Below are positions 6,725 to 31,327 of a stretch of 32,272 nt of DNA, piece by piece. The notes beneath the pieces are model-generated. The model had not been told where the DNA came from. It did no database searches and saw only the letters and a list, made by a program, of their open reading frames with translations. The stretch lies in the IMG/VR virus record IMGVR_UViG_3300025168_000354, positions 1 through 32,272 of that record; one strand, 5' to 3'. This DNA comes from a virus (taxonomy: Duplodnaviria > Caudoviricetes). The first letter of the stretch is position 1. Each line of letters starts with the position of its first letter. Both the position numbers and the translations under genes were made by a program.

Positions 6725-7336
6725 TCACCAATGACCTTTCGGGCAAGACTCACCTTCTATTGTTACCTTGGACGCCAAGAAACAACCACACCCACCCCGC
6801 TCCTCGTCACACACTCCGAAGTTGTAAATACCTTCAGGGCAATTCAAACAGATAGATTTCCGTTTGTCAACCACCTCTAAGCTTGCCTGGTCAATGCCCA
6901 GTTCAGATTTGAGCAGCCCTGGAACGCCTTTGGCGAGTCGTTTAAGCATGCCCGCTTTCTTCTGCTTTGCTTTTTCTGCACACGATGAGCAACCCCCTTG
7001 AGATTCTGGGTCACTTTGCAACGCTTTTTTTTCCTGAAGATAATCGTGCTGTTTGGTGTTTGCAGGAATTTGATCTTTGAAGATAACGTCGTTCATGCCT
7101 GGGTTTGGACCCGTCACATTCTTAGGCATCCCATCAAACTGTTTGAAAGACACAGACGGATTTTCTAAATCAACTACAGGAACCTGCTCAATCGGGTTGT
7201 ATTTTTCCGACACATATACAAGTTGCATATCTTTATCGAGCAATACCTCAACACAATTCAAGTTTGTGCAACAAGTATGAACTGAAGTGTTAGATTGATT
7301 TTTTGGAAGTTCTGAACGACTGTTAAGTGTTGCCAT
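6725..7336 (-). CDS. Cys-rich protein with a C-terminal DUF6171-like metal-binding domain
   Basis: R..ICLNC...C.....CGCFL..K......CPKGHW, plus GGCSSC and TCCTNLNC. Confidence 0.7.
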   Translation of the reverse strand: MATLNSRSELPKNQSNTSVHTCCTNLNCVEVLLDKDMQLVYVSEKYNPIEQVPVVDLENPSVSFKQFDGMPKNVTGPNPGMNDVIFKDQIPANTKQHDYLQEKKALQSDPESQGGCSSCAEKAKQKKAGMLKRLAKGVPGLLKSELGIDQASLEVVDKRKSICLNCPEGIYNFGVCDEERGGCGCFLASKVTIEGESCPKGHW

Positions 7337-7351
7337 TATTTGTTTTTCTTA

Positions 7352-9304
7352 TTAGAAGTTGGGGAACAGTCTTATTCCAGTGCATTTAAACACCTTGCCG
7401 TAACAATGTTCATAATAACAAGGTGTGTTAGGAGGGAAGTTATCGTTTTCTTCTGGTTCCCGACATATTTCACACTTCCCGCCACATCTACCAGCTTCGT
7501 GTTCAAAGTGTATGTTTTCTGCCATTGGTTCCATTTGGCAACTTAGTCCGCCTGGACAATGTACGCATTGAGTGCCACCAAGATGAGCAGGACAAGTACC
7601 AAGTTCATACCTCATTTTTAATAGATGGCCACAAGCTCCATACGGTCCTTGTTGACACTTTTGATAACTTCCATCACCAGGCCACCAGCCGCAACAATGA
7701 CCTGTGTCACTAATACCATTGCCTTCACACCATTCATCTCCGTGTATAAGTTCAGGGCAACATGACCCACACGGACCCTTTTCAAACGGATAACAAAAGT
7801 ATGAAGTGCCATCATCTTCTTCATGACAAGGAAATGTTGCACCTTGAACACCTTGACCGCATGCGTCACAAGCGTCTGTAGATTTGCAAAACAATGGGTC
7901 ACAATCTTCATCTTCTCCTATTGTGCAATCTGCTCCTCCGTTTTGACAATGACAAAGACCACCACCCCCAAATCCAGTACAGCCGTCTCCGCACCCAGCT
8001 TTGTGATACAGCGTCCCTGGTGGGTCTGCGTCCAATTCACAACCTTGACATTGGCCAAATGCGGATCGAGATAACTCAACAGAAACTTCTAGCTCGTTAA
8101 TCGTTTTACTTCCTACCCACCTGTCGTTTTCTCTGCGTACAAACAAAGAAAAACTTTGACCACATTCTGGGCCTACTTCTTGCCAAGGACTTCCAACACA
8201 CACAATTGTAAATGAGATAATCCCATATTGCCTTACGCTTGGAATCCAACCAACGCCAGGCTGATATTCGCAATAACAATCTCGACAAGTTTTGCGGCAT
8301 TCAAGCTCTGGGGGTTCTACATATTCTTTACATCTGCCATCATTACATCCGTCATATTCTACGCCGCATGGTGGGTCACCTAAAAACAAGACAGGGTATT
8401 TAGGCTGACTGTTTCCAAACGCTGGATTTACTTTGTACAAGCCGCCAGATTTGTTGTAGCAGCATGTGCCTCGCTTTATTGTGTCTGGCATGCAACGCTG
8501 CGTGTACCCACCTGGACAACCATTTGGGCAACAAAAGTACGGAGATTCAGAATTATCCTCTTCTTCATCCGCTCCGCATTTACACAAAACAGACCAAGCA
8601 GGTCTATAAGACTGACACTCTTGAAAGTTGTCAGAACAAGCAATGTAATCTTGATACCAACAAACCTGTTTGCAACAATCAACACAAAGCTCGCTTACTT
8701 TGTTGCCTGGTGTATTCCAGTAACCACACTCATACCGACAGTTAGGATTGTTTTGCGGATCACACCCGTTGTTTTTTTCGTCAATAATTCTAGGCAAGCC
8801 CGATGTTGTAGAGCTACCTCTTGCCCATCCGCATTGATACCCGCAATATGGAGTTCCCAAAGGTTGACGAACAACGACTTGACCTAACGGAGACGAAGTG
8901 CCGTTTGGGTTGTCTGGATCTTCCGGTATTTGAATATCGGTTTTTCCGCTGTAACAACCAGACCCATTATGACCTTCTCCATCCCAAAAACGCACCCTAA
9001 ACCACCAGTCAGTAGGTTCAAAATCGCACTCTCTTCTTAGCCTGTCAAACTCATTGAACTGTCTTGTGCATATAGATATGTACTTTGGCATATCTTCCAT
9101 GCAAGGAGGGTCATCGTTTGGATCGTCACTTATGGAACAATGCCGAAAGTTATAGTATCGACAAGGTTCAGTGCAGCAATCGCACACTATCGAAAGATCA
9201 GCAGCTTCAGCAAGAACGTATTGTTTGTTTCTAACAACGTAAGAAGTAACTTGTGCTTCTTCGTCTCTTCTTGCTAGTTGTTTTCTTTCTTCTCCACTCG
9301 CCAC
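7352..9304 (-). CDS. very cysteine-rich protein, putative tail-tip/receptor-binding protein
   Basis: 650 aa with about 68 Cys by manual count. GAGGGG RBS; lies at the distal end of the tail module. Confidence 0.75.
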   Translation of the reverse strand: MASGEERKQLARRDEEAQVTSYVVRNKQYVLAEAADLSIVCDCCTEPCRYYNFRHCSISDDPNDDPPCMEDMPKYISICTRQFNEFDRLRRECDFEPTDWWFRVRFWDGEGHNGSGCYSGKTDIQIPEDPDNPNGTSSPLGQVVVRQPLGTPYCGYQCGWARGSSTTSGLPRIIDEKNNGCDPQNNPNCRYECGYWNTPGNKVSELCVDCCKQVCWYQDYIACSDNFQECQSYRPAWSVLCKCGADEEEDNSESPYFCCPNGCPGGYTQRCMPDTIKRGTCCYNKSGGLYKVNPAFGNSQPKYPVLFLGDPPCGVEYDGCNDGRCKEYVEPPELECRKTCRDCYCEYQPGVGWIPSVRQYGIISFTIVCVGSPWQEVGPECGQSFSLFVRRENDRWVGSKTINELEVSVELSRSAFGQCQGCELDADPPGTLYHKAGCGDGCTGFGGGGLCHCQNGGADCTIGEDEDCDPLFCKSTDACDACGQGVQGATFPCHEEDDGTSYFCYPFEKGPCGSCCPELIHGDEWCEGNGISDTGHCCGWWPGDGSYQKCQQGPYGACGHLLKMRYELGTCPAHLGGTQCVHCPGGLSCQMEPMAENIHFEHEAGRCGGKCEICREPEENDNFPPNTPCYYEHCYGKVFKCTGIRLFPNF

Positions 9305-19893: not shown

Positions 19894-20922
19894 TCAGTCA
19901 ACGCAATCTGTCAGGAGGAAGCCAGAGAGCGGAGCCGTGAGAACGATTGCCGAATCATCGACAACGCGACCACGGGTACGCCGGTTCCAGGTGTCATCCA
20001 TCGTCTCAACCGTCATGTCTTCATAAGCCATGCAAGTAATAGTTGAGAAATCGGGGACGCCTTCCTGGCCCAACAATCCGCCTGGGCGACTGACGAATGC
20101 AATGTCATCCTCGAAGATCGAGCTTCGAGCAGTGGTCACACCCTTGCGATTAGTAACCTTAGTGGTCGTGTCAACAACGATGCCACCGATTCCGAAGAAG
20201 CTCGAGAGCAATGAATACTCATCAAACTCACCAGCACCCTTAACGAATCCAGCCGCGAAAGGCGAACCGTTGAAGTAGGTGTGGTACTCTTCAGTTTCCG
20301 TGATCTGATGAGCGGTGTCTGCGCTCATGATTGCCACGATGTCACTGGGCTTGACGGCTTCGCCGGTGTTGCTAAGGATTCGCTCAACAACGCCGTTGAA
20401 TGCCTTCTGGATGAAGTAGTTCGTTCCAGAAGAAGCGTCCAGCTTGCCGCCACCAAAGTCAGCATGGTTACAAGCTGAAGTTGCCAGGGCAGGCCAGTTA
20501 CCTGAAGTGATCAGGGTCGTTGCTGCTCGCATGGAACGAAGACGCATAGCCTTTGAGGCTGCGATTCGTGCGTGTGCTGCAACAATGTCCCAATCAGCAT
20601 TGGATACCGAACGGTGTCCAAGGGTGAAAGGTTGAGCAAATCTTTCAGTGGTGAAAGATGTGAACTCGTGATCTACCGAACCGCCTTCAGGAGCGTCGTT
20701 GCCGTCACGCCAAACGAAGTCGTTTGTGCTTACGAGTCGGCTTGACTCTTCTTCGTCGATTGACAGGAAATATCCCGTACTCTTGGAAACTGGGACCAGC
20801 TTGCAATATTGAGTTACTGGGAACGAATTGGGGGAACGGGTGAATTCAACTTGAATCTGCCCCGTCGCCTCTGAAAATGTGGGGACGAATGTGTTTCCGC
20901 CACCTGGTGCGACTTCTGCCAT
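19894..20922 (-). CDS. major capsid protein
   Basis: 342 aa. Follows the protease/scaffold and decoration genes, has a GAGGA RBS and is followed by a strong hairpin. Confidence 0.82.
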   Translation of the reverse strand: MAEVAPGGGNTFVPTFSEATGQIQVEFTRSPNSFPVTQYCKLVPVSKSTGYFLSIDEEESSRLVSTNDFVWRDGNDAPEGGSVDHEFTSFTTERFAQPFTLGHRSVSNADWDIVAAHARIAASKAMRLRSMRAATTLITSGNWPALATSACNHADFGGGKLDASSGTNYFIQKAFNGVVERILSNTGEAVKPSDIVAIMSADTAHQITETEEYHTYFNGSPFAAGFVKGAGEFDEYSLLSSFFGIGGIVVDTTTKVTNRKGVTTARSSIFEDDIAFVSRPGGLLGQEGVPDFSTITCMAYEDMTVETMDDTWNRRTRGRVVDDSAIVLTAPLSGFLLTDCVD

Positions 20923-21384: not shown

Positions 21385-22746
21385 TCAGCCGGACTTCAAT
21401 TCTTGTTCAAAGACCTGCTGGAACTTATCCGAGTCCAGGTTCTCTTTTGTCATACGGACTACAGCGCGGTCGGATGCCGCTTTACGATCTTCTGATGAAT
21501 ACTCAGATTTGCCGCTGACTCGAGCATTTGTCATATTCAAACGCTTGCCAATCGGGTTCTTCTTGAGGGTTGCACGCCAGAACTTGAGCTTAGCCTCAAC
21601 GTCCTTAGTAGCGAGCAGTTCATCCATCATGTGATTGCGATGCTCTCGGACTCGGTAGCCAGCAGCTTGCAGTGCGTCCAGTTCCTTAGAGAACTTGGCC
21701 TTGCGGAGCTTCATGCCCAGGCCACGCGCTACCTTGCGGTATGCGTTTCGCTGAACTTTGAGCTTCTTAAAACGAGCAATGACTTCTTTGCCATTCTTGG
21801 TTCGACGAATCTTCGAGTACATTTCTTTGTCCTCGTCTTCTTCGTCTTCCTCGTCATAATGAGCTTCTTCGGCTTCCTCGTCATAATGGGATTTGCCGGA
21901 CATCATTTCGTCGTCTTCGTCCTCGTCCATTCCCATCATCATTTCTTCGTCATCTTCGTCATCGCCATTGAGCTGCATTTTGAGCTGCTCCAGGTCTTCA
22001 CGAAGGGTGTCATTCTCAGCACGAAGCTTGGCGATGAGATCCTTGTCATCACCGTCATGCTCGATCGTCATGCGACCGTCATTTTCTTCAGGCATGTCAT
22101 GTTCCTTCTTTTCACAGTCCGCCATACCGGGGACAAAAGTGTTAGACCCGCCTGGAGCAACCTCAGAAAAGGTAACAGGACGGGTATACGTTGATTTTTC
22201 GCCAGTCTTGGCGAACCGTGTGTCTCGTAGGGGACGGGCTGGCGTTTCCCGGCCAAGCAAAGCAACTTCGCTCATGTGGCCGTCTTTCCAAATCTCAGCA
22301 GAACGACGAGGGAAACGGTTGGAGGAAATGTACTCCTCGAAGTCAGACTTCGACATTACAACATCACCAACGATACCAGGCCCGCTGTAATTCTCCCCGT
22401 CGCCGGTATTGATGTAGATATCCTTGCGACCAATGTTGACGATATCGCCAAGAGCTTCAGGAGGGCAATCTTTGCCTTCTTCCTGATGAAGCATAACCAG
22501 CTTAGGGTTGCTTCCTGCGCTCATGTGAGCTTTGGTGCGAGTAATGATCTTCTCAATAGCCTCATCGTCCAAATCATCCATACCCGAATCATCCGCATCG
22601 AAGCCAGGGATGTGGCCTACAAATAGTTCGAGGTCGTGGATCGTGACCTTATCCCCGTTTTCGGATACTTGATGAGACGGATTAGAAATAGTTGCTTCTG
22701 CGGCCTGCATTTCAGCGTTCATACTAGATATTTCGTCCTTTGTCAC
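21385..22746 (-). CDS. prohead protease / scaffold fusion (Mu I/Z-like)
   Basis: N-terminal protease-like H...G.I...FPRRSAEI...VALLG..PA motifs; acidic coiled-coil C-terminal half. Confidence 0.75.
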   Translation of the reverse strand: MTKDEISSMNAEMQAAEATISNPSHQVSENGDKVTIHDLELFVGHIPGFDADDSGMDDLDDEAIEKIITRTKAHMSAGSNPKLVMLHQEEGKDCPPEALGDIVNIGRKDIYINTGDGENYSGPGIVGDVVMSKSDFEEYISSNRFPRRSAEIWKDGHMSEVALLGRETPARPLRDTRFAKTGEKSTYTRPVTFSEVAPGGSNTFVPGMADCEKKEHDMPEENDGRMTIEHDGDDKDLIAKLRAENDTLREDLEQLKMQLNGDDEDDEEMMMGMDEDEDDEMMSGKSHYDEEAEEAHYDEEDEEDEDKEMYSKIRRTKNGKEVIARFKKLKVQRNAYRKVARGLGMKLRKAKFSKELDALQAAGYRVREHRNHMMDELLATKDVEAKLKFWRATLKKNPIGKRLNMTNARVSGKSEYSSEDRKAASDRAVVRMTKENLDSDKFQQVFEQELKSG

Positions 22747-22970: not shown

Positions 22971-24848
22971 CTACGCTGCCTGGACGGAGTTTGTGAATCC
23001 TGGATCGGGATATTCCCCGCGATCTATGTAGCCCTGGCGATTGCCGTTGTACCGCTCGAGAGCTTTCCAATTGATTTCCCCGTCATCGCCCACCAGGCCA
23101 AGGTTTTCCGCCTCGGTCCAAGATACGACACGAACGGTCCCCCTGCAATTGAAGCCGTTAGGGGGAGCCAGCTGCAAGCGGTCGAAATACTCAACCGTAT
23201 TGATGTATCCATCCATTGCCGCGTGGTGATCTCGAGAACGAGGATCTTGTATTTCTACGATCATTGCAAGGGGTGCAACGCTTTTGACCTCCGGCGACCG
23301 CATAGAGGACATATGTCCTTCATTGAAGGCACTTTGCAGGTTTGTACGGTAGATGGTTTCAAGTCGTGCAGCCGTAAGATTTTGCGCGCCCTCAAGCCAT
23401 GCCCGGCTAATAAACTCTGGCAAGGTCATACGGTCATCTGGCATGACACCGCGCATCGCCTGGGCAATCATGTCTTGCATATTGATCGTAATTGTCTTCT
23501 TCTCTTCTTTTGTACCTTTAAGATCAGAAACCCAAAAACCATGCCCTAAAGACTTTGATATCGCATTCGTTTGGGCATCAAGCTTGGCGACCACGCCCAT
23601 GCGTTCAGCCATGGCAATATCGGCGGCTTGCTGCTTGGCAATAGCAGCGATGTGCGGGACGTTGTGAGCCAGCATCGGAACGCGATCTTCAAACAGGTCA
23701 ATCGCCTCCTGGAACGGCTCTGGAGCGAACTCCTCGAATCCAACCTCCATCGGCCAATCTTCCTTGGCGTAGGTTTCCTTGGCGTGCGTGATCTTGGGAT
23801 TGTCGGGGTCAAACTCGCCTGTGTTGCCAATGGATGACTTGATTTGAGTAGGTTTAAATACGGCTATCGTATCTAACGACGATCCTTCAGAACCGCTTTC
23901 GGAAAGCCAAATTCCATCAAACCCCATGCCTTTGATTTGCTGTATTACCTCTTCTTGTTCATACGCAACCCAGTTACCACGATTTGCGGCCTCTTCCATC
24001 GCTTTAGATTTCCAAGAAATCAAGTCTTTGTGTTTTCTGGGATCAAACGGATTTTGTGCTGACAGATGAACTGGAATTACTCGAATGTCCGCCATGCTTT
24101 CAAACTCAAGATAAGAATCAAAGCCATATCTGCTTGTCATTCGTCTTCCTACTTCTTTTCGCATTTCGTCGTACTTTTTTAATCCTTCTTCTGATGAAAG
24201 GTCAATGTTTTCAATTCCCAATTCATTAAATATTTCGTCTTCATATGTCCGCATTTCTTTTTTCTTATCGCGGACTTCTTGGGATGGTTCACGCATAAAC
24301 CCACCCGATCCTTGAATCCAGTTTGAAGCAAATAAAGGATCAACGGAAAAGAAATACATCTCATCCATTCCGGGTCGTGGTTTAAACTCATCAAACGTTT
24401 TTTTTGTCCCGTGGTAGACCACCAACGGCTCGCCGTCATCGTCCACCACCTTCGAGTCACCAAACCACGCCTTGAACTCTGGCGTTGAAGTCTTGTGCCG
24501 TGATTCGCCTGGTTCAGCCTTACCGTCACCATCGCCAGAACAGGTGTTCCCTGGCTGGAAGCCGCCGCCGCCCTCGGCGTTAGCACCGCATCCGGGTTTA
24601 GCGTAGGTCGCCTTGTCGGAGAAGAAATCAGCACCAGCTATTTCAGCGTCCTCAATGACCTGAGACAAACCCAACAGGTAGGAAAGCAGAATAGCGCGAG
24701 CCGTGACAAGCTCGAAGTCGTGCCAGGCTCGGCCATCTGCCCTTCCTTCAATAGTCGATGCGACCGCCTCAATGTATGGAACGACGCTTTCCTCGAAAGC
24801 AGCCGCCATAAGGTCATCAAACTCTTTGTCTGTATGAACCTTTGCCAA
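22971..24848 (-). CDS. MuF (Mu gp30/SPP1 gp7-like) minor head protein with an internal ART-PolyVal-like ADP-ribosyltransferase domain
   Basis: C-terminal MuF motifs RLETIYRTNLQSAFNEG, D.RSR..H..MDG, PPNGFNCR. Internal TPEFKAWFGDSKVVD..GEPLVVYHGT...FFS...PVHL...NP...GFDGI...VF.PTQIKS.IGN.G.FD. Confidence 0.85.
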   Translation of the reverse strand: MAKVHTDKEFDDLMAAAFEESVVPYIEAVASTIEGRADGRAWHDFELVTARAILLSYLLGLSQVIEDAEIAGADFFSDKATYAKPGCGANAEGGGGFQPGNTCSGDGDGKAEPGESRHKTSTPEFKAWFGDSKVVDDDGEPLVVYHGTKKTFDEFKPRPGMDEMYFFSVDPLFASNWIQGSGGFMREPSQEVRDKKKEMRTYEDEIFNELGIENIDLSSEEGLKKYDEMRKEVGRRMTSRYGFDSYLEFESMADIRVIPVHLSAQNPFDPRKHKDLISWKSKAMEEAANRGNWVAYEQEEVIQQIKGMGFDGIWLSESGSEGSSLDTIAVFKPTQIKSSIGNTGEFDPDNPKITHAKETYAKEDWPMEVGFEEFAPEPFQEAIDLFEDRVPMLAHNVPHIAAIAKQQAADIAMAERMGVVAKLDAQTNAISKSLGHGFWVSDLKGTKEEKKTITINMQDMIAQAMRGVMPDDRMTLPEFISRAWLEGAQNLTAARLETIYRTNLQSAFNEGHMSSMRSPEVKSVAPLAMIVEIQDPRSRDHHAAMDGYINTVEYFDRLQLAPPNGFNCRGTVRVVSWTEAENLGLVGDDGEINWKALERYNGNRQGYIDRGEYPDPGFTNSVQAA

Positions 24849-24851
24849 TCG

Positions 24852-25136
24852 CTAATCCTTGCGCTTGTCTTCGTCGTCCAGTTTACCCAGGCGTTCCCAG
24901 TCCGGGTTCATGTCGTTCAACAGTCGTATCATCGTCTCGAGGCGGATAATCGAGTTATCCAATGCCCTGGTGCGGTCGATCAGCTTCGTGATCATATTCC
25001 ACTGGGCATCCATCTTGTGCATCAGCGTATTCATCATCCACCGTCCCAACAGGTAGATGCCACCCATCAGGGCAATCGCTATGAATACGGGGAAGCCAAG
25101 AGTCTCGATAACTTTGATGATTTCAGAACCTTGCAC
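24852..25136 (-). CDS. small membrane protein, holin-like
   Basis: IETLGFPVFIAIALMGGIYLL transmembrane helix followed by a coiled coil. Confidence 0.6.
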   Translation of the reverse strand: MQGSEIIKVIETLGFPVFIAIALMGGIYLLGRWMMNTLMHKMDAQWNMITKLIDRTRALDNSIIRLETMIRLLNDMNPDWERLGKLDDEDKRKD

Positions 25137-25139
25137 TGT

Positions 25140-26411
25140 TTATCCCATTTCAAGTTCGTCATGACGTATATCCAAATCTCTAGGGTTGATCCCCGTACTG
25201 TCGTAAACGTAGCGCAACGTATTGCCCTCTTCGATTAGTTCATCTGCATACGCTTGAACGTCAGGATCAGCATCTTTGTAATCAACCGAATTTTTCACCA
25301 TTTCCATCATTTGTTCGATGCCTCCGGGTTTTCCCGCCAGGCCGAATGAAGAGGCTAGTTCTTCCGCTGCGGGTGCGTCGAATGCTGCGGGTGCGTCGGC
25401 CTGGGTTTCAAAGTATTCTTCTGCGGCAACTACGTCTTCCCAAGCCTGACTTGTGCTTTCACCCTTTTCGTTGGCCTTCAAGAACGATCTAGCGGCTGCA
25501 AATACGGGATCATCTGTAATTCCGGCCACTGGACCGACATTCAAAGCGCGGTTAGTGTTTGCTTCAGACCAACCCTTATCACTGGCATAAGCCATCAAGG
25601 CGGCAACTGCTGCTGATTTGTATTCTTCGTTGCTAGGTTCAGTTTGAAGATTACCCAGGCTTGAGGTCAAAGAATAAACCGAATCTGATGCAGAGCCACT
25701 TTGGTCGCCCGCTGCGGGTGCGTCGGCCTGGGCTTCTTGTGCTTGTGCAACCCAACCGCGCATTTCCTCGGCTTCTGCTGCTGTAATATCCTTTTCGTCC
25801 AGCATGTCTTGGATGTCTTCTTCAGTTACATCCTTGTAAGCCTCCGCGATTTCAGCGTCAGCAGCCGCCTTTTGTTCGGCAAGCTGTTGCTTCATCTCTG
25901 CGATTTCTGCATCCATTTTGGCTTGCTCTGAAGCAATGTCATCCGATGCGGGTGCGTCGGCGGCTGCGGGTGCGTCGGCTGCTTCATCAACATCCATTAG
26001 CTCCAAAAGAGCTGCTTCCATTGATTCACGATCACTCAAATTATCGGAGCCTTCTTCAATTCCATATTCCATCAGCTCTTCTTTAAGAAGTTCGTCTGAT
26101 ATATGACTCATATCGGTGTTATGAATTGTTGCGCCGTCTCGAACCGCCTCGTCAGTTAGTTGAATTTCAATCTTTCCTGAGCCTGTTGACATGACCGGAT
26201 TACTACTGGATTTATCACCACCACCTTGGTCGCCAGCGTCGTTAGAACCGTCGCCGTCGCCGCCACAGGTGTTACCAGGCTGGAAGCCCTTGCTACCTTG
26301 ATCGCCTGCACCACAACCCGACCCGAAGTTGTACTTGTGTCGGTGCTTGGGGTGAATCTGGTGCTGATACTTTGCGGCTTCCGCCTTGGCTCGTCTGCTA
26401 AAGGTACTCAT
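25140..26411 (-). CDS. acidic modular protein, putative internal head (ejected) protein
   Basis: The ATG at 26411 overlaps the portal TGA (the ORF track starts at 26507). Basic N-terminus, CG..GFQPGNTC tag and DAPAA linkers. Confidence 0.72.
   Translation of the reverse strand: MSTFSRRAKAEAAKYQHQIHPKHRHKYNFGSGCGAGDQGSKGFQPGNTCGGDGDGSNDAGDQGGGDKSSSNPVMSTGSGKIEIQLTDEAVRDGATIHNTDMSHISDELLKEELMEYGIEEGSDNLSDRESMEAALLELMDVDEAADAPAAADAPASDDIASEQAKMDAEIAEMKQQLAEQKAAADAEIAEAYKDVTEEDIQDMLDEKDITAAEAEEMRGWVAQAQEAQADAPAAGDQSGSASDSVYSLTSSLGNLQTEPSNEEYKSAAVAALMAYASDKGWSEANTNRALNVGPVAGITDDPVFAAARSFLKANEKGESTSQAWEDVVAAEEYFETQADAPAAFDAPAAEELASSFGLAGKPGGIEQMMEMVKNSVDYKDADPDVQAYADELIEEGNTLRYVYDSTGINPRDLDIRHDELEMG
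25364..25979. repeat. dispersed direct repeats TGCGGGTGCGTCG x5 (DAPA linkers)
   Basis: Copies start at 25368, 25386, 25713, 25947 and 25965. 25384-25405 and 25711-25732 are identical over 22 nt. Confidence 0.92.
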
Positions 26412-28234
26412 TTGGTGTTGTCCTTCTTGGTTTCGTCTAGTTTTTCTGCGTGTCGTTCTGCCCAGGCGGCTCCAGCGCCATCTGGGTCTGAAGGATCTCC
26501 ACCCCAAAGCATCCAGGCGATTACACCCGCCGAAGGATAATCTTCATGTCCCCGCTTTGCTGCTGGTGCGTCAAGGTCTACCCGATGTCTCGAGAAGAAT
26601 GAATGCATACGCTTTACCGTGTCAGCAGACAGGTTATCTTTATTCTTGATGTTTCTAGCTCTTGCTACGCCTATAGATGTGCCGCCTCGGCCATGCTCCT
26701 CTCGAAGCTCAAGACCCCGTTCGGCAAGTGAAGCCATCTCGTCCGTTGGCTTGTAATCATCTTCCTTCTGCATCTCTGTCTTAAGAGCGTAGGTGTATTT
26801 CTTGAATGCCTCGCTTCGGGGCTGTCCGCCGCCAAGCAACGCTTCCAATGGGTTCTGTTCCTCTTGGCCTGGTGCAGCCATTTGCTCTTGCTGCTGTTGA
26901 CTCGAGAGAACCGGCTCCCCCTCTTCGGGTTCAGTCAGTCCAAGGATCTCGCGTGCTTGTCGCTGCGATACCTCGCCGCCCATCTCAACGAATCCGCGCA
27001 CAGCTTCCATGAACTCATGCGGATCGTTCTTCTCGAGCGAGAACTCGAATCGGGGCTTGTAGGCCGTTTCCCCGAAGTTCATTTCGTGGTACTTCCAGAC
27101 CAGTTCCCGCGTGAGGGTGTCGGCAAGGTTCATAGCGTCGGCACGAACCATCCGCTTGAACGTCTCGGCGTGCTGATCGCCTACCGATGATCCAAGCCCG
27201 GTCGATGTGGCTTCGGTCGTTGCCGTCTGCCCAATAATCAGTTCCTTGATCTGACCGGCCAAGTAGCCTTCGATCAGGTCCGCAAACGTCTTGGCGTTCC
27301 CTGCGTTCGGCTCCTGAACCTCAATTGAGTAGGCATCTCGGCTCTCGCCTGGTTGCCGTGGAATAACCACCGACACATCGCCAACGAGGTTCTGCAAGAC
27401 CTCTTCCATCACGTCCTTGGCAGCGTTGTTGCCGTCCGGGTAGGTTCCGACTCGGATACCCATGCCATACCGCTCAATCCAAGTCATCCAGAACTGGAGA
27501 GCGGTTTGCTTCATCATCCAGTAGAACCAGACCGTATCCCTGATGCCACGGCCTGAATAGACGTATGCGGCTTCTTCTGGTTCTTCGTAATCCGGTCCTT
27601 GGCGCCCATGAGTGTGAAGAACGACCAATTCGCGTTCCTCATCGTCGAGGGTGTGAACCATGCCGTAAGGCCCGGTTTCCTTGTCCCCCTCGTATTTCAG
27701 GCCGACGTACATGGTCAGATCGCCGTATGTGGTGAACGCCAGCGTGTCAGAGTGAATAGGCATCCACTCGCCTGGTACAACGAATCCCTCTCTCATTTCC
27801 GGCGTCACCTGGACAGCAGCAGGTCCGTACCAAACAGCGTCAAGCAACGCCATGAAGAACTCAAACGGCTTGTACAGGTTGGTCTTGAGCAGCTTCTCGA
27901 GGGTAGCCGCCTGTTCGACCTGTACCGGATCGTTCTCGTCTTCTGGCTTGATCTCGTATTCGAGCAGGGCTACCGCTGATTGTCGCTGGTAAAGCGGTCC
28001 CATCACGTCCGGGTCACGTCGCATCTGTCGCTGAAGCTTGCGATCCTTGCGCAAAGCCATGTCAGAACGGCGAAGTACCTTGGTGAAGTGACTGATGTAG
28101 GAGCGTTGAAGCTCAACTACGGACGCGAATGGCGGTTCAACCACTGCGCGGGGATTTTCGTTTGGGACGATCTCGCCGTCTTCTGTCTTGGCGAACCGCC
28201 CCTTATCATTACGCGCTTGTTTTGGGTTTGCCAT
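26408..28234 (-). CDS. portal protein (DUF935 / Mu gp29-like) with an extra C-terminal domain
   Basis: M.RDP.V...L.QR..AV, LLDAVWYG, W..WIERYG, I.ELIIGQT.T, GLGS.VG..H and D...L..TL...LV motifs. Confidence 0.9.
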   Translation of the reverse strand: MANPKQARNDKGRFAKTEDGEIVPNENPRAVVEPPFASVVELQRSYISHFTKVLRRSDMALRKDRKLQRQMRRDPDVMGPLYQRQSAVALLEYEIKPEDENDPVQVEQAATLEKLLKTNLYKPFEFFMALLDAVWYGPAAVQVTPEMREGFVVPGEWMPIHSDTLAFTTYGDLTMYVGLKYEGDKETGPYGMVHTLDDEERELVVLHTHGRQGPDYEEPEEAAYVYSGRGIRDTVWFYWMMKQTALQFWMTWIERYGMGIRVGTYPDGNNAAKDVMEEVLQNLVGDVSVVIPRQPGESRDAYSIEVQEPNAGNAKTFADLIEGYLAGQIKELIIGQTATTEATSTGLGSSVGDQHAETFKRMVRADAMNLADTLTRELVWKYHEMNFGETAYKPRFEFSLEKNDPHEFMEAVRGFVEMGGEVSQRQAREILGLTEPEEGEPVLSSQQQQEQMAAPGQEEQNPLEALLGGGQPRSEAFKKYTYALKTEMQKEDDYKPTDEMASLAERGLELREEHGRGGTSIGVARARNIKNKDNLSADTVKRMHSFFSRHRVDLDAPAAKRGHEDYPSAGVIAWMLWGGDPSDPDGAGAAWAERHAEKLDETKKDNTK

Positions 28235-28319: not shown

Positions 28320-29726
28320 CTAGGCTCCGTATATCTTGCCAAGCCCAACACTTCGTTCAATTCGGTTTGGTTTCGCTGGAGGTTTGGAAGATGAAGCCAG
28401 GTCCATCAAGTCAATACAGGCGTCAACACTATCGTCGTGAGCTGCAATCGGAAAGGTAGTCATTTCGTCAAACAACGCATCAAAGGTTGGCATTCTTTGT
28501 CCTTCGCTTTCCGGGAAGTGAAGACGCCCCCCCTCCACAAACGCTTGCCTGGACGCCGCTCGAGTGACCTTATCCGTAGTTCGTTTAGCTGGCATGATCG
28601 GAAACCTCGATGTTTCGTTCATTTGCTGTACAAGCCCCTTTTGAGGCCCGTTAGCCTCTCCTATGGCCCTAACAACGCCGTGATGGTTGCATAGCCCCAA
28701 AGCTCGCCTGGAGAAGTCTGGGAACGTCGCCCGGACCCTGAGCATGTCAACCAAGTACAGATGATTGTTGGAGCTAAGCCAGGCCACCAGGCAAACGCTG
28801 TAATCGGGGTCGCCTCCAGCTCGTCTATCGCTAAATGCGAAGTCAAAGGCAGCTACCATCTCCCCATTGTCTGGTTTAGCCTGGTGATCGTAGTAGCTCG
28901 AGACGATCCAATCTCCGCTGAAGATCATAGTTTCAGCACTAATCGGAGACAGCTCGAACGCTCGACCGAACGCAACAGGGCCGATTTCCTTCCTAATGTC
29001 CTCTAGCAGCTCTTCTGTGATCTCTTCAGGCCAGGGAGATACAACGCCCTGGACCGGCACTCGAAGCAATGAATCGTCCTCTTCGTGCTGCTTTCGCCAA
29101 TCTGCGGTGATATCGTCAACGTGGTAGCAAGTGCCGATTTTCCACGTTTTTGGCCTCTTACCCTGCGTAAAGTCCCGCATGGGAAGCCAGTTGTTGTTCC
29201 AGAACTCCTTGACCTGTTCGCGCAATGACGGCTGCTGAATAGAGTTTCTAAGGTCACAAATATCGTCAGCCAGGAGGATGTCAGCTCGTCCACCAGCTCG
29301 ACCGAAGATGCCCTTAGCTTCCATCGTGCTGTCACGCTGCCAGGAATCGCAATGCACCTTGAAGTCGGTATTGCCCCAAAAGTCCTTAACTGGCTTGATC
29401 TCGGGGAATACTGCCTGGAACTTCGGCGATTCTATGATGTTCTTGACCAGAGCCGTTGTCTTGGAAGCGTCCCGGTCTGACTGCTGGATGTACTTGATCC
29501 GCACGTTCGGGTTCTTACCGATCTCCCAGGCACACCGTGCGGCCATCTGAGACGTTTTACCGTGTCCACGGGGCAACTCGATGTAGCAATTGTCAAACTG
29601 CTCTAGGTGGTCGTGTAGGCGTTTGTGGAGCCTAGCCTGGTCAAAGCCCAGAACGTAGGTACAGAACCAAGTAGGGGAGATCCTACACAGGGCTAGTACG
29701 TCGTTCTCGTCGAGCTGCTTAGTCAC
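28320..29726 (-). CDS. terL: terminase large subunit
   Basis: Walker A PRGHGKT, Walker B ILLADD, nuclease motifs AFDFA, DYS and HDDSVDA. Probable GTG start at 29726 (the ORF track starts at 29771). Confidence 0.93.
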   Translation of the reverse strand: MTKQLDENDVLALCRISPTWFCTYVLGFDQARLHKRLHDHLEQFDNCYIELPRGHGKTSQMAARCAWEIGKNPNVRIKYIQQSDRDASKTTALVKNIIESPKFQAVFPEIKPVKDFWGNTDFKVHCDSWQRDSTMEAKGIFGRAGGRADILLADDICDLRNSIQQPSLREQVKEFWNNNWLPMRDFTQGKRPKTWKIGTCYHVDDITADWRKQHEEDDSLLRVPVQGVVSPWPEEITEELLEDIRKEIGPVAFGRAFELSPISAETMIFSGDWIVSSYYDHQAKPDNGEMVAAFDFAFSDRRAGGDPDYSVCLVAWLSSNNHLYLVDMLRVRATFPDFSRRALGLCNHHGVVRAIGEANGPQKGLVQQMNETSRFPIMPAKRTTDKVTRAASRQAFVEGGRLHFPESEGQRMPTFDALFDEMTTFPIAAHDDSVDACIDLMDLASSSKPPAKPNRIERSVGLGKIYGA

Positions 29727-30282
29727 ATTCGTTTCCCCAAACGCTCCAGCCGTCACATTTATTTCTTGCAAACAACTCTATTCTTGGCCTGTCCCCGTAC
29801 AAAGATACAATTCGATCCCTCGTCTCATCTGGCTTTTTGCTGTGTTTTCCTCTTGGTGCAAGTATGACCTGAGAAACTTTTGCGCTCTGAAGCGTAAATG
29901 GGCGACCCCTTTTATTTGTCGAAGCAAACAAGCATAACTCTGTTATTGGCTTTGTTGATGTTGGCGGGACGCCTTGCGCTCCAATAATACCGCCGTCTTT
30001 TCTTGTCTTGACCCAAACAAACGCAACACCCCGGTAGTGCAGTCCCCAAGCGGATATTGCTTCAAGTGCTAAATCTAACCTTGGGCATGTTGCCCACACA
30101 AAGAACGCTCCTTGCTTTGAGTCTTGCAAAAGCGTCTTTGGATTCATCTTGCAAATTTGTTCCATTGTCATCAAATCGTAATGCTTGCCAGCAGCAGCAT
30201 TTTTGTTTGGATCGCCGTACATAGGCCACGGAGGGTCTGCGTACACAACATCATATTTTCCAAGATGATTGCTACCAAACAC
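29719..30282 (-). CDS. MT-A70 family N6-adenine methyltransferase
   Basis: YDVVYADPPW, HY..M....I, FVW.T, AWG..Y....FVWVK, TE.CL, HSKKP and RIELFAR....GW.VWGNE. Confidence 0.92.
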   Translation of the reverse strand: MFGSNHLGKYDVVYADPPWPMYGDPNKNAAAGKHYDLMTMEQICKMNPKTLLQDSKQGAFFVWATCPRLDLALEAISAWGLHYRGVAFVWVKTRKDGGIIGAQGVPPTSTKPITELCLFASTNKRGRPFTLQSAKVSQVILAPRGKHSKKPDETRDRIVSLYGDRPRIELFARNKCDGWSVWGNECD

Positions 30283-30567: not shown

Positions 30568-30921
30568 TTAAGCTCGTCGCTTTCTCCTGCGTATCGGCAG
30601 TAAGGCTACCCCAAATACAGCCAAAGTGCCGGGAGCTGGTGCGATCACTTCAGTCAGGTTTGAAGCACCTGATTTGAAGGCGTTAATCGAGTCCAGCCAA
30701 TCGACCAGGCTGTCCAATGTTTCTTTGCCAAAAATGACCCCTATCGCCACCGCAATGATGGTCAGCGTAAATACACGCTTGTCCAGCTCTCGAATCTTCT
30801 TATCCTTGGCCTGGGTGCTTTTCTTGCAGTTAAACAGGTCTGATTTGAGCTGGTCAACCTCTTTGTTTTGGCAGTTCGGACAATCGCCCCTGGCTGCGTT
30901 CTTTGTTCCCCCGGATTCCAT
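30568..30921 (-). CDS. membrane protein with a PEP-CTERM-like (PAP) C-terminal sorting signal
   Basis: CPNC, coiled coil, TM helix, then IAPAPGTLAVFGVALLPIRRRKRRA. Confidence 0.75.
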   Translation of the reverse strand: MESGGTKNAARGDCPNCQNKEVDQLKSDLFNCKKSTQAKDKKIRELDKRVFTLTIIAVAIGVIFGKETLDSLVDWLDSINAFKSGASNLTEVIAPAPGTLAVFGVALLPIRRRKRRA

Positions 30922-30924
30922 TGT

Positions 30925-31314
30925 CTAATCTCGCCATTCGTCGGTTTGCTTCGCCAGGCGGGTCAAACGCTCCATATCGTCTTCGGTGAATAGTGGGCCT
31001 CCATCATGACCAGCTAGACGGTCGGCAACCCTTCCGTCAATTCGCTCGAGGATCATATTGAAGAACTTGTAATCGCCGTCCAGAGCTTGAGCTAGTGCCT
31101 GGGATACTAGCTGCTGTACGATGTCGTCCCCACTCTCCCCATCAGCTAATCGACGCTTCAGCTCGGTTTCGATACTGACCGTCCCTTTTGGCCTACCACC
31201 TGGATTCCCCGATTCGCCTGGCTTGAATCTGTACGGCTGTAGCCAGGGCTGCTTATCGGTTTTCTCGAGGTCGCCGTTTGTACTGTTGTTTTTGTGTTCT
31301 TCAGTATTGCTCAT
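30925..31314 (-). CDS. terminase small subunit-like protein (DUF5681)
   Basis: L.PYRFKPGESGNPGGRPKG, A..GD......ILERIDGRV and G.DGGPL. ATG at 31314 (the ORF track starts at 31323). Confidence 0.78.
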   Translation of the reverse strand: MSNTEEHKNNSTNGDLEKTDKQPWLQPYRFKPGESGNPGGRPKGTVSIETELKRRLADGESGDDIVQQLVSQALAQALDGDYKFFNMILERIDGRVADRLAGHDGGPLFTEDDMERLTRLAKQTDEWRD

Positions 31315-31321
31315 AGCTGCC

Positions 31322-31327
31322 ACTATA
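31322..31327 (-). promoter_or_regulatory. -10 element of a putative leaderless TerS transcript
   Basis: TATAGT on -, exactly 7 nt before the ATG at 31314, with no SD sequence. Confidence 0.45.

Follow-up and report, generated by a model that had tools for sequence, protein, structure and literature searches.

What is a short two-cysteine peptide doing in front of unrelated modules in the head operon of a marine tailed phage? The question is raised by a 32,272-nucleotide stretch of Caudoviricetes DNA (IMG/VR record IMGVR_UViG_3300025168_000354, positions 1 to 32,272, the whole assembled sequence; "the window" below), in which a MuF minor head protein and a stand-alone protein of 423 amino acids (aa) share such a peptide, here called the tag. 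A sequence-only reading of the window had proposed that the tag loads cargo into the prohead, in the manner of the capsid-targeting sequence (CTS) of T4. We find instead that the tag very probably stands directly behind the predicted cut of the phage's own prohead protease, a cut-and-tag architecture, and, given that architecture, it is likely that the tag functions after cleavage. The role that we favor, with an even chance of being correct, is that of a post-cleavage handle that keeps freed cargo modules with the packaged genome for ejection. At the level of sequence comparison, four properties carry this proposal: the tag is portable, it is located in head operons, modules are swapped at it, and the residue upstream of it tracks the local protease class.

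The two copies and the proteins that bear them are:

22971..24848, minus strand: MuF minor head protein bearing the cassette described below, 625 aa, with Phage_Mu_F at aa 490-572.
24522..24596, minus strand: tag copy 1 and the start of a Gly/Asp linker, aa 85-109 of the MuF fusion, read from the sequence; Cys-to-Cys core at 24590..24540.
25140..26411, minus strand: 423-aa stand-alone protein, a constant 67-aa leader, tag and linker followed by an acidic mosaic payload with no known family.
26247..26321, minus strand: tag copy 2 and linker start, aa 31-55 of the 423-aa protein, read from the sequence; Cys-to-Cys core at 26315..26265.

Both peptides were found exactly as first quoted, on the minus strand, a detail that the sequence-only reading had omitted; its coordinates for the single peptides are right, and its overall span, 24522..26318, is 3 bases short at its end, copy 2 ending at 26321. 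Conservation at the protein level was borne out: the copies agree at 18/25 residues, 8 of these 18 being encoded by different codons, and the Cys-Cys spacing is equal. When residues were shuffled (300 shuffles), ungapped 25-aa stretches of the two proteins had at best 8-11 identities, compared with the 18 observed. The cores start at aa 87 (MuF) and aa 33 (423-aa protein), and the window holds no third copy. The consensus first proposed, CG-x7-GFQPGNTCxGDGDG, survives in its two-Cys core, whereas the fixed x7 spacer does not and GDGDG is kept in close relatives only. Among 287 unique contexts, before noise filtering, the spacer between CG and GF was x4 in 163, x7 in 119, x10 in 4 and x8 in 1. 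In an alignment of 66 sequences, C, G, F, G, N and C never vary, which is partly fixed by the search patterns; the upstream CG, which lay outside the search pattern, is present in 92/93 unique GF[QK]PGNTC contexts, and the second Cys appears unprompted in 59/64 CG-RDxxGxFxxGN contexts.

Judged by pattern and profile, the tag is widespread among hundreds of unrelated uncultured phages. Scans of viral sequences found GF[QK]PGNTC in 118 stretches, the form with a 4-residue spacer in at least 134 (about 620 estimated) and that with a 7-residue spacer in 117; 28 chance-like matches were filtered out of 619, one of which, at L156, may be real (L with a number denotes a locus compared in this analysis). 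A 28-position profile, run against 1.84 billion representatives, retrieved 427 protein clusters at E ≤ 0.001, and every one of the top 150 proteins has 2-7 matched stretches, with up to seven copies per chain. The expected enrichment in head operons was found: head genes are present at 112/123 non-redundant tag loci versus 5/12 chance-match loci, the former judged by the protein clusters of this analysis and the latter, only 12 in number, by PHROGs. The tag is absent from the terminase (0/58) and capsid (0/53) open reading frames (ORFs) searched.

Pfam, PHROGs and NCBIfam hold no family covering the tag, and its profile had 0 matches at E ≤ 10 among PDB sequences. A tblastn search with one 30-aa tag against 50,697 GenBank phage records gave no match at E ≤ 10, a weak negative for a short, low-complexity query, and the ESM Atlas gave no usable match for the tag or for the acidic payload of the 423-aa protein. 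AlphaFold2 on a 33-aa tag (66-row alignment) predicted no defined structure (predicted local distance difference test, pLDDT, 55.7) and is uninformative. Among 27 loci in named genomes, 18 are without the full tag and 9 have it, on 8 contigs; five of these are labelled Planctomycetota, one Opitutaceae (Verrucomicrobiota), and two, possibly misbinned, are contigs of metagenome-assembled genomes with the labels archaeon and Proteobacteria. The Planctomycetota tag records include Singulisphaera acidiphila DSM 18658. The contig labelled archaeon (L345/L356) encodes a Mu-portal fusion of 2419 aa, with topoisomerase IB at its end, as well as a tagged protein in which ART-PolyVal stretches occur six times.

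The tag does not always precede the same domain; it is portable and stands ahead of many unrelated, interchangeable payloads. These include ART-PolyVal and other ADP-ribosyltransferases (ARTs), ArdA, a zeta-like kinase, ParB, 2H phosphoesterase, DddA-like deaminase, topoisomerase IB, GNAT, RelA/SpoT and a zincin-like domain. We scanned 63 of 80 non-redundant tagged proteins for domains, leaving out 17 short fragments: 17 belong to three Pfam families of portals and 13 to MuF, so that 30/63 have an anchor in their own portal or MuF domain. A further 45, sampled from the top 150 profile proteins, comprise 14 portal/MuF fusions, 9 proteins with payload domains only, 21 without a Pfam match and 1 that looks cellular.

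The residues ahead of the tag appear for the most part to follow the protease of each phage. Loci were assigned to groups from the clusters of their terminase, portal and protease, and head class was set without using the tag; the residue windows ahead of the tag were picked after viewing the data. With HK97-protease type a, R occurs at -3..-1 before the tag in 22/30 cases (background 0.20); with type b, K occurs at -5..-1 in 19/19 (background 0.28), and with type c, K precedes the tag in 12/12 (background 0.36). The Mu-portal class has F/Y before the tag in 45/51 (background 0.28) and the lambda-portal class has F/L in 17/19 (background 0.31). Thus, the pre-tag residues vary with the type of head protease (R, K, F/Y or L/F), and they mostly fit the predicted capsid-maturation site of the same phage. 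That site was placed where we presume it to lie by analogy to HK97. At 32 loci with an HK97-like capsid, its basic residue agrees with the pre-tag residue in 24 and disagrees in 2, and 6 are without a counterpart. Tallied by eye, pre-tag K occurs in 11 and neither residue in 1 of the 12 loci whose predicted capsid site has Lys, and the 20 with Arg have R in 13, K in 2 and neither in 5; Fisher's test on the called cases gives p = 2e-5, a value confounded by lineage. An identical CGTGAG spacer occurs in four head classes, mostly with each class's own upstream residue, which argues for retuning of the site over inheritance. In the profile hits, an independent set, the class of the site agrees within proteins in 278/433 pairs of copies (64%; counted in 143/150 top profile proteins), compared with a mean of 27% and a maximum of 34% in 2000 shuffles. 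E- and N-type site patterns are also visible by eye among the profile hits.

The window itself encodes a candidate for the protease and a likely substrate:

21385..22746, minus strand: predicted prohead protease-scaffold, 453 aa, with invariant His75/Ser137/Ser147 (aligned-fragment numbering) and an internal TF|SE junction.
19894..20922, minus strand: likely major capsid protein, with TF|SE at aa 15-18; assigned by its position after the cement gene and by conservation, with no family match.

By its modeled fold and its conserved His and Ser residues, the 453-aa ORF is predicted to be a prohead serine protease of the HK97/assemblin fold. H75, S137 and S147 are invariant in 23 sequences of its family, and Foldseek places the model with a Gordonia phage capsid maturation protease (E 2.6e-7). 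The ORF has no Pfam, PHROG or NCBIfam match; its profile retrieved only spurious armadillo rows from PDB sequences, and structure comparison with the PDB gave only weak herpes-protease rows. An F/Y-site pattern, defined post hoc, occurs in all five head proteins of the window, namely the portal, the 423-aa protein, MuF (twice), the protease-scaffold (twice) and the capsid protein, and was not found in the terminase large subunit (TerL) or in three downstream structural ORFs. Just after TF|SE, the protease-scaffold copies the N-terminal ~14 residues of the capsid protein (22134-22173 and 20880-20922, minus strand), and this copy is kept in every aligned c1 relative; freed scaffold would therefore begin like the capsid protein.

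The predicted site lies within 1-5 residues of the tag in most classes, and this tight adjoining is what a prime-side recognition element would look like, that is, a loop whose only part is to present the neighboring cut or to enhance it. We consider this unlikely: the same sites stand tag-free in the capsid, the scaffold, the empty MuF and the portal tail, the same tag serves proteases of different predicted specificities, and the tag is kept directly behind the start Met. Three ORFs begin Met-x(3-4)-tag and have no site upstream.

In the window MuF, the order is KATYAK, tag plus ART, KETYAK:

24597..24614, minus strand: first K-x-TYAK site, KATYAK, aa 79-84, ahead of tag copy 1; a predicted protease site, presumably cleaved.
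23781..24521, minus strand: payload 1, a module of the ART-PolyVal ADP-ribosyltransferase family, assigned by family match and comparison of relatives.
23763..23780, minus strand: second K-x-TYAK site, KETYAK, aa 357-362, closing the cassette; likewise a predicted protease site, presumably cleaved.

At L264, a nearly identical MuF has a single KATYAK site and no insert (an empty allele), and at L009 and L048 another payload occupies the ART position. DNA identity with L264 ends at 24598 and 23784, and with L009 and L048 it ends at 24527 or 24541, and at 23785. Marine metagenome runs contain DNA near-identical to the window, and among four runs compared, contigs of two other studies (sequencing runs X3 and X6) have 731 different bases in place of 23786-24540. 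By these alignments, tag plus ART is a swappable cassette between two K-x-TYAK sites, and its alleles break at the site or just after the tag. Since DNA homology with relatives ends just after it, the tag could be a mere recombination joint that supplies shared homology for module swapping; the predominance of Planctomycetota and Verrucomicrobiota labels on full-tag contigs could likewise point to a host-side address, read by a host factor after entry. Both are highly improbable in our judgment, given that conservation is at the protein level despite the synonymous differences, that the empty allele breaks at the site and not at the tag, and that related RD forms (see below) occur in structural tail proteins.

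The 423-aa protein separates the tag from a second candidate signal:

26325..26411, minus strand: first 29 aa of the 423-aa protein, a basic leader with a YNF|G-like predicted site at its end, read from the sequence.

The N-terminal 67 residues of this family are constant and its payloads vary, with ArdA in 3/28 homologues. Acidic sub-modules joined by repeated (A/D)-D-A-P-A-A linkers (25140-26000, minus strand) are shuffled among the relatives. The T4 CTS of IPI-III is a 10-19-residue N-terminal propeptide that is removed by gp21, as summarized in PMC9026906. Like it, the tag is a short peptide adjoining a prohead-protease site on diverse internal head proteins. Unlike it, the tag would, from the predicted cuts, stay on the mature cargo, and it is often internal, repeated and common to unrelated head types. 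By analogy, the basic leader would be the closer counterpart of a removable T4-type targeting sequence.

Could the tag nonetheless be the loading signal first proposed, binding the assembling prohead and bringing the cargo in, with fused copies as passengers or a source of avidity? Stand-alone proteins do carry it near the N-terminus (40/216 copies lie within 60 residues of the ORF start, 5/216 within 12), some proteins begin with it, including the leaderless 2466-aa protein of L288, and the constant N-terminus of the 423-aa family ahead of variable payloads would fit. However, the comparison with T4 fails in several respects: the predicted cut comes before the tag, 176/216 copies are beyond residue 60, the tag is repeated in 37/155 tagged ORFs, and it is conserved on portal and MuF fusions that are already anchored. 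Two traits of a T4-type CTS, a place at the precursor N-terminus and removal by the prohead protease, are thus not those of the tag (removal being judged by predicted site position). One peptide also serves HK97-, lambda- and Mu-portal heads with differing capsids, and the lineage-specific elements, which differ between head groups, are the leaders and not the tags. We therefore regard loading as a rather unlikely role. Anchored multi-tagged chains need no multiple loading signals, whereas each freed module would need a handle of its own, which favors the post-cleavage handle.

What such a handle might bind is suggested by a second motif. Hybrid forms, CG-RDxxG[KR]F-xxGNxC, occur in 83 stretches, with R just upstream in 53/59 of the two-Cys contexts, and they tie the tag, at the level of its sequence, to the RDxxG[RK]F motif of tape-measure and neck proteins. 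Cys-free RDxxG[RK][FW] peptides stand at tag-equivalent positions in L174 (four) and L238 (one), and Cys-free RD-type forms also occur in likely small-terminase ORFs and at the N-terminus of the window portal:

26408..28234, minus strand: Mu-type portal with N-terminal RNDKGRF (28213..28193) and an untagged C-terminal phrog_2859 module, from family searches.

RDARGRF, which we take to be a form found in tape-measure proteins, was used as a scan query and occurs in at least 120 stretches (about 560 estimated). Among the 51 ORFs scanned (15 near-duplicates of 66 were left out), 12 match tape-measure families, 4 are long transglycosylase proteins, 3 are neck/tail-completion proteins, 2 are scaffolds, 1 is a polymerase, 2 belong to unknown families and 27 have no match. 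Two side observations concern small terminases: the DUF5681 small-terminase-like ORF of the window (30925-31323, minus strand) has F-K-P-G-E-S-G-N, similar to F-x-P-G-N of the tag, and an ORF placed like it in L276/L256 bears the form RNGDGKFSKGN.

The Cys-free peptides bear on another explanation, in which the tags link each freed module to others or to a protein of the virion through Zn-Cys4 pairs or intermolecular disulfides and so form an ejection chain. Both Cys residues co-occur almost without exception and multi-copy chains are common, as that explanation would have it. The equivalent peptides that do without Cys make it improbable, and a variable loop length with an invariant F-x-x-G-N better fits an intramolecular staple around a binding face.

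Since one and the same peptide is found alongside widely differing capsids, portals and proteases, it more likely binds a partner that all of them share. If the tag does function after cleavage, we give DNA an even chance of being that partner. Several of the RDARGRF protein classes meet packaged DNA; the tail-completion protein of 80alpha, for example, caps the DNA end beside the tape-measure N-termini, in the account of PMC11661146. In NF-YA, a GXGGRF loop reads the minor groove (PMC11802806). The tag, most clearly in its hybrid form, has a similar Gly-rich loop ending in G-G/R-F, an analogy only, and the window tags differ in having no Arg. NF-YA was not retrieved from the PDB at E ≤ 10 by the tag, RD or hybrid profiles, and the hybrid profile gave only chance-level rows among PDB sequences. 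Two PDB tail/baseplate-hub sequences, 8fqc_C1 and 9rku_Af, contain Q-x-RDASGRF; the RD profile matches them weakly (E 0.11 and 2), and we do not count them as evidence. The relevant passages of the Milano phage paper (PMC10811340) are silent on this loop.

These observations suggest the following sequence of events. Cargo would enter the prohead through a portal or MuF anchor or a removable lineage-specific leader. The protease would then cut after F/Y in the window phage (after R, K or L/F in the remaining classes that were tested) and make the tag the new N-terminus. Closed by the Cys pair, the tag would form a loop that displays F-x-x-G-N and amounts to a stapled version of the RDxxG[RK]F motif, and this loop would bind a partner common to unrelated heads, most likely DNA, so that cargo is retained as the scaffold leaves and is then co-ejected. 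ART, ArdA and similar modules would act in the host.

A number of points weigh against this proposal. Cleavage, packaging, ejection and binding are all predictions from sequence, and the protease model is of moderate quality (pLDDT 66.8) and matches nothing in the PDB at E ≤ 0.001. Where modules are fused, their tags could be passengers that date from a stand-alone state, and copies inside one protein may share ancestry. The head classes represent few lineages, and the Fisher value thus overstates independence. For the Mu class, the exact bond is uncertain, since K is frequently the marked residue closest to the tag (18/51, as in Y-A-K). Not every module follows the pattern: 7/16 ART modules have no tag within 60 residues, and the portal phrog_2859 module has a site yet no tag. 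The core of the Cys loop is mostly uncharged (net 0 or -1 in 135/207, positive in 50), which is poor for DNA binding, and 27/51 RDARGRF proteins are without a family. Finally, the Arg-site lineage of L120, L132, L139, L142 and L149 has no Arg adjoining the tag, and L167, L173 and L055 are mismatched too. Five of the six loci without a counterpart are this one lineage, with an E-x-R-like site ~20-30 residues upstream of the tag, a pattern recognized post hoc. At L120, L132, L139, L142, L149 and L173, the stretch between the predicted Arg site and the tag is strongly Lys/Arg-rich, and the mature N-terminus in that lineage would thus be basic.

The cargo proteins themselves are of a known kind, polyvalent or MuF-portal effector fusions; the header peptide is real, widespread and apparently new in print. 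We found no paper describing it in the open-licence literature, which does not include the supplementary alignments of the 2017 polyvalent-protein paper, and a further search found none on ejection-protein polyproteins. Iyer et al. (2017, PMC5512222; 2022, PMC9503650) describe polyvalent and portal-MuF effectors with ART, 2H, RelA/SpoT, ParB, GNAT and metallopeptidase modules, propose that they are packaged and injected, and recognize that processing into units is needed. In the parts of these papers that bear on processing, built-in metallopeptidases are proposed, and no per-module header peptide or prohead-protease sites are mentioned. The window ORF 22971..24848 is similar in that it fuses ART-PolyVal (PF18760, E 1.1e-17) to Phage_Mu_F (E 2.8e-11) within a portal-terminase head module. 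The MuF polymorphic toxins of Jamet et al. (2017, PMC5576092) likewise combine MuF with a variable enzymatic module near the portal (EFV is MuF-ART), as the window MuF does. In the window, however, the ART (aa 239-346) is N-terminal of MuF, between duplicated sites, and not C-terminal. The small ORF after MuF, where such toxins would have an immunity gene, matches HTH_17/excisionase families, which are not recognized as immunity genes. Patience gp4 was considered as a lead and dropped: it bridges capsid hexamers, and the account in PMC11965321, as far as it concerns gp4, mentions no such motif.

The remainder of the window gives the context of these genes. The minus-strand head operon runs from a DUF5681 small terminase through a methylase, TerL, the Mu-type portal, the 423-aa orphan, a 94-aa ORF, MuF with ART-PolyVal, an HTH gene, the 453-aa ORF and a cement protein to the 342-aa likely capsid protein.

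28320..29771, minus strand: terminase large subunit, a context gene without tag or site pattern, from family searches.

The start ATG of the 423-aa ORF at 26411 overlaps the portal stop codon. The portal C-terminal phrog_2859 module (26408-26790, minus strand; unknown function) follows a KYTY|AL site, and it is found again on many portals and some proteases of related loci. A 117-aa ORF (30568-30921, minus strand) has a sorting-signal-like tail, with CTERM-family matches that are weak (E 0.04-0.2) and all below cut-off; such a tail may hint at a host of the Planctomycetota type. The tail region closes with a pair of ORFs (6725-9304, minus strand): one of 650 aa, extremely rich in Cys and without a family match, and after it one of 203 aa (phrog_13558) whose C-terminus is Cys-rich.

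For polyvalent effectors, the tag bears on how modules are separated, retained in the head and ejected: it yields residue-level predictions of the cuts, of the protease responsible and of 14-17 key residues. It is also a search handle for new anti-defence modules, since Pfam recognizes not a single domain in 21/45 tagged proteins of the sample. More tentatively, and with the chances somewhat against it, tailed phages may share a general addressing grammar composed of a local prohead-protease site, a short header (Cys-stapled loop or RDxxG[RK]F) and an effector. The header would then be a minimal DNA-hitching peptide, common to tape-measure, neck and small-terminase proteins, that carries any cut-free enzyme into the cell whatever the capsid type. 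If true, this grammar would account for the retention and ejection of internal head proteins and would provide a portable delivery handle of 14-17 residues.

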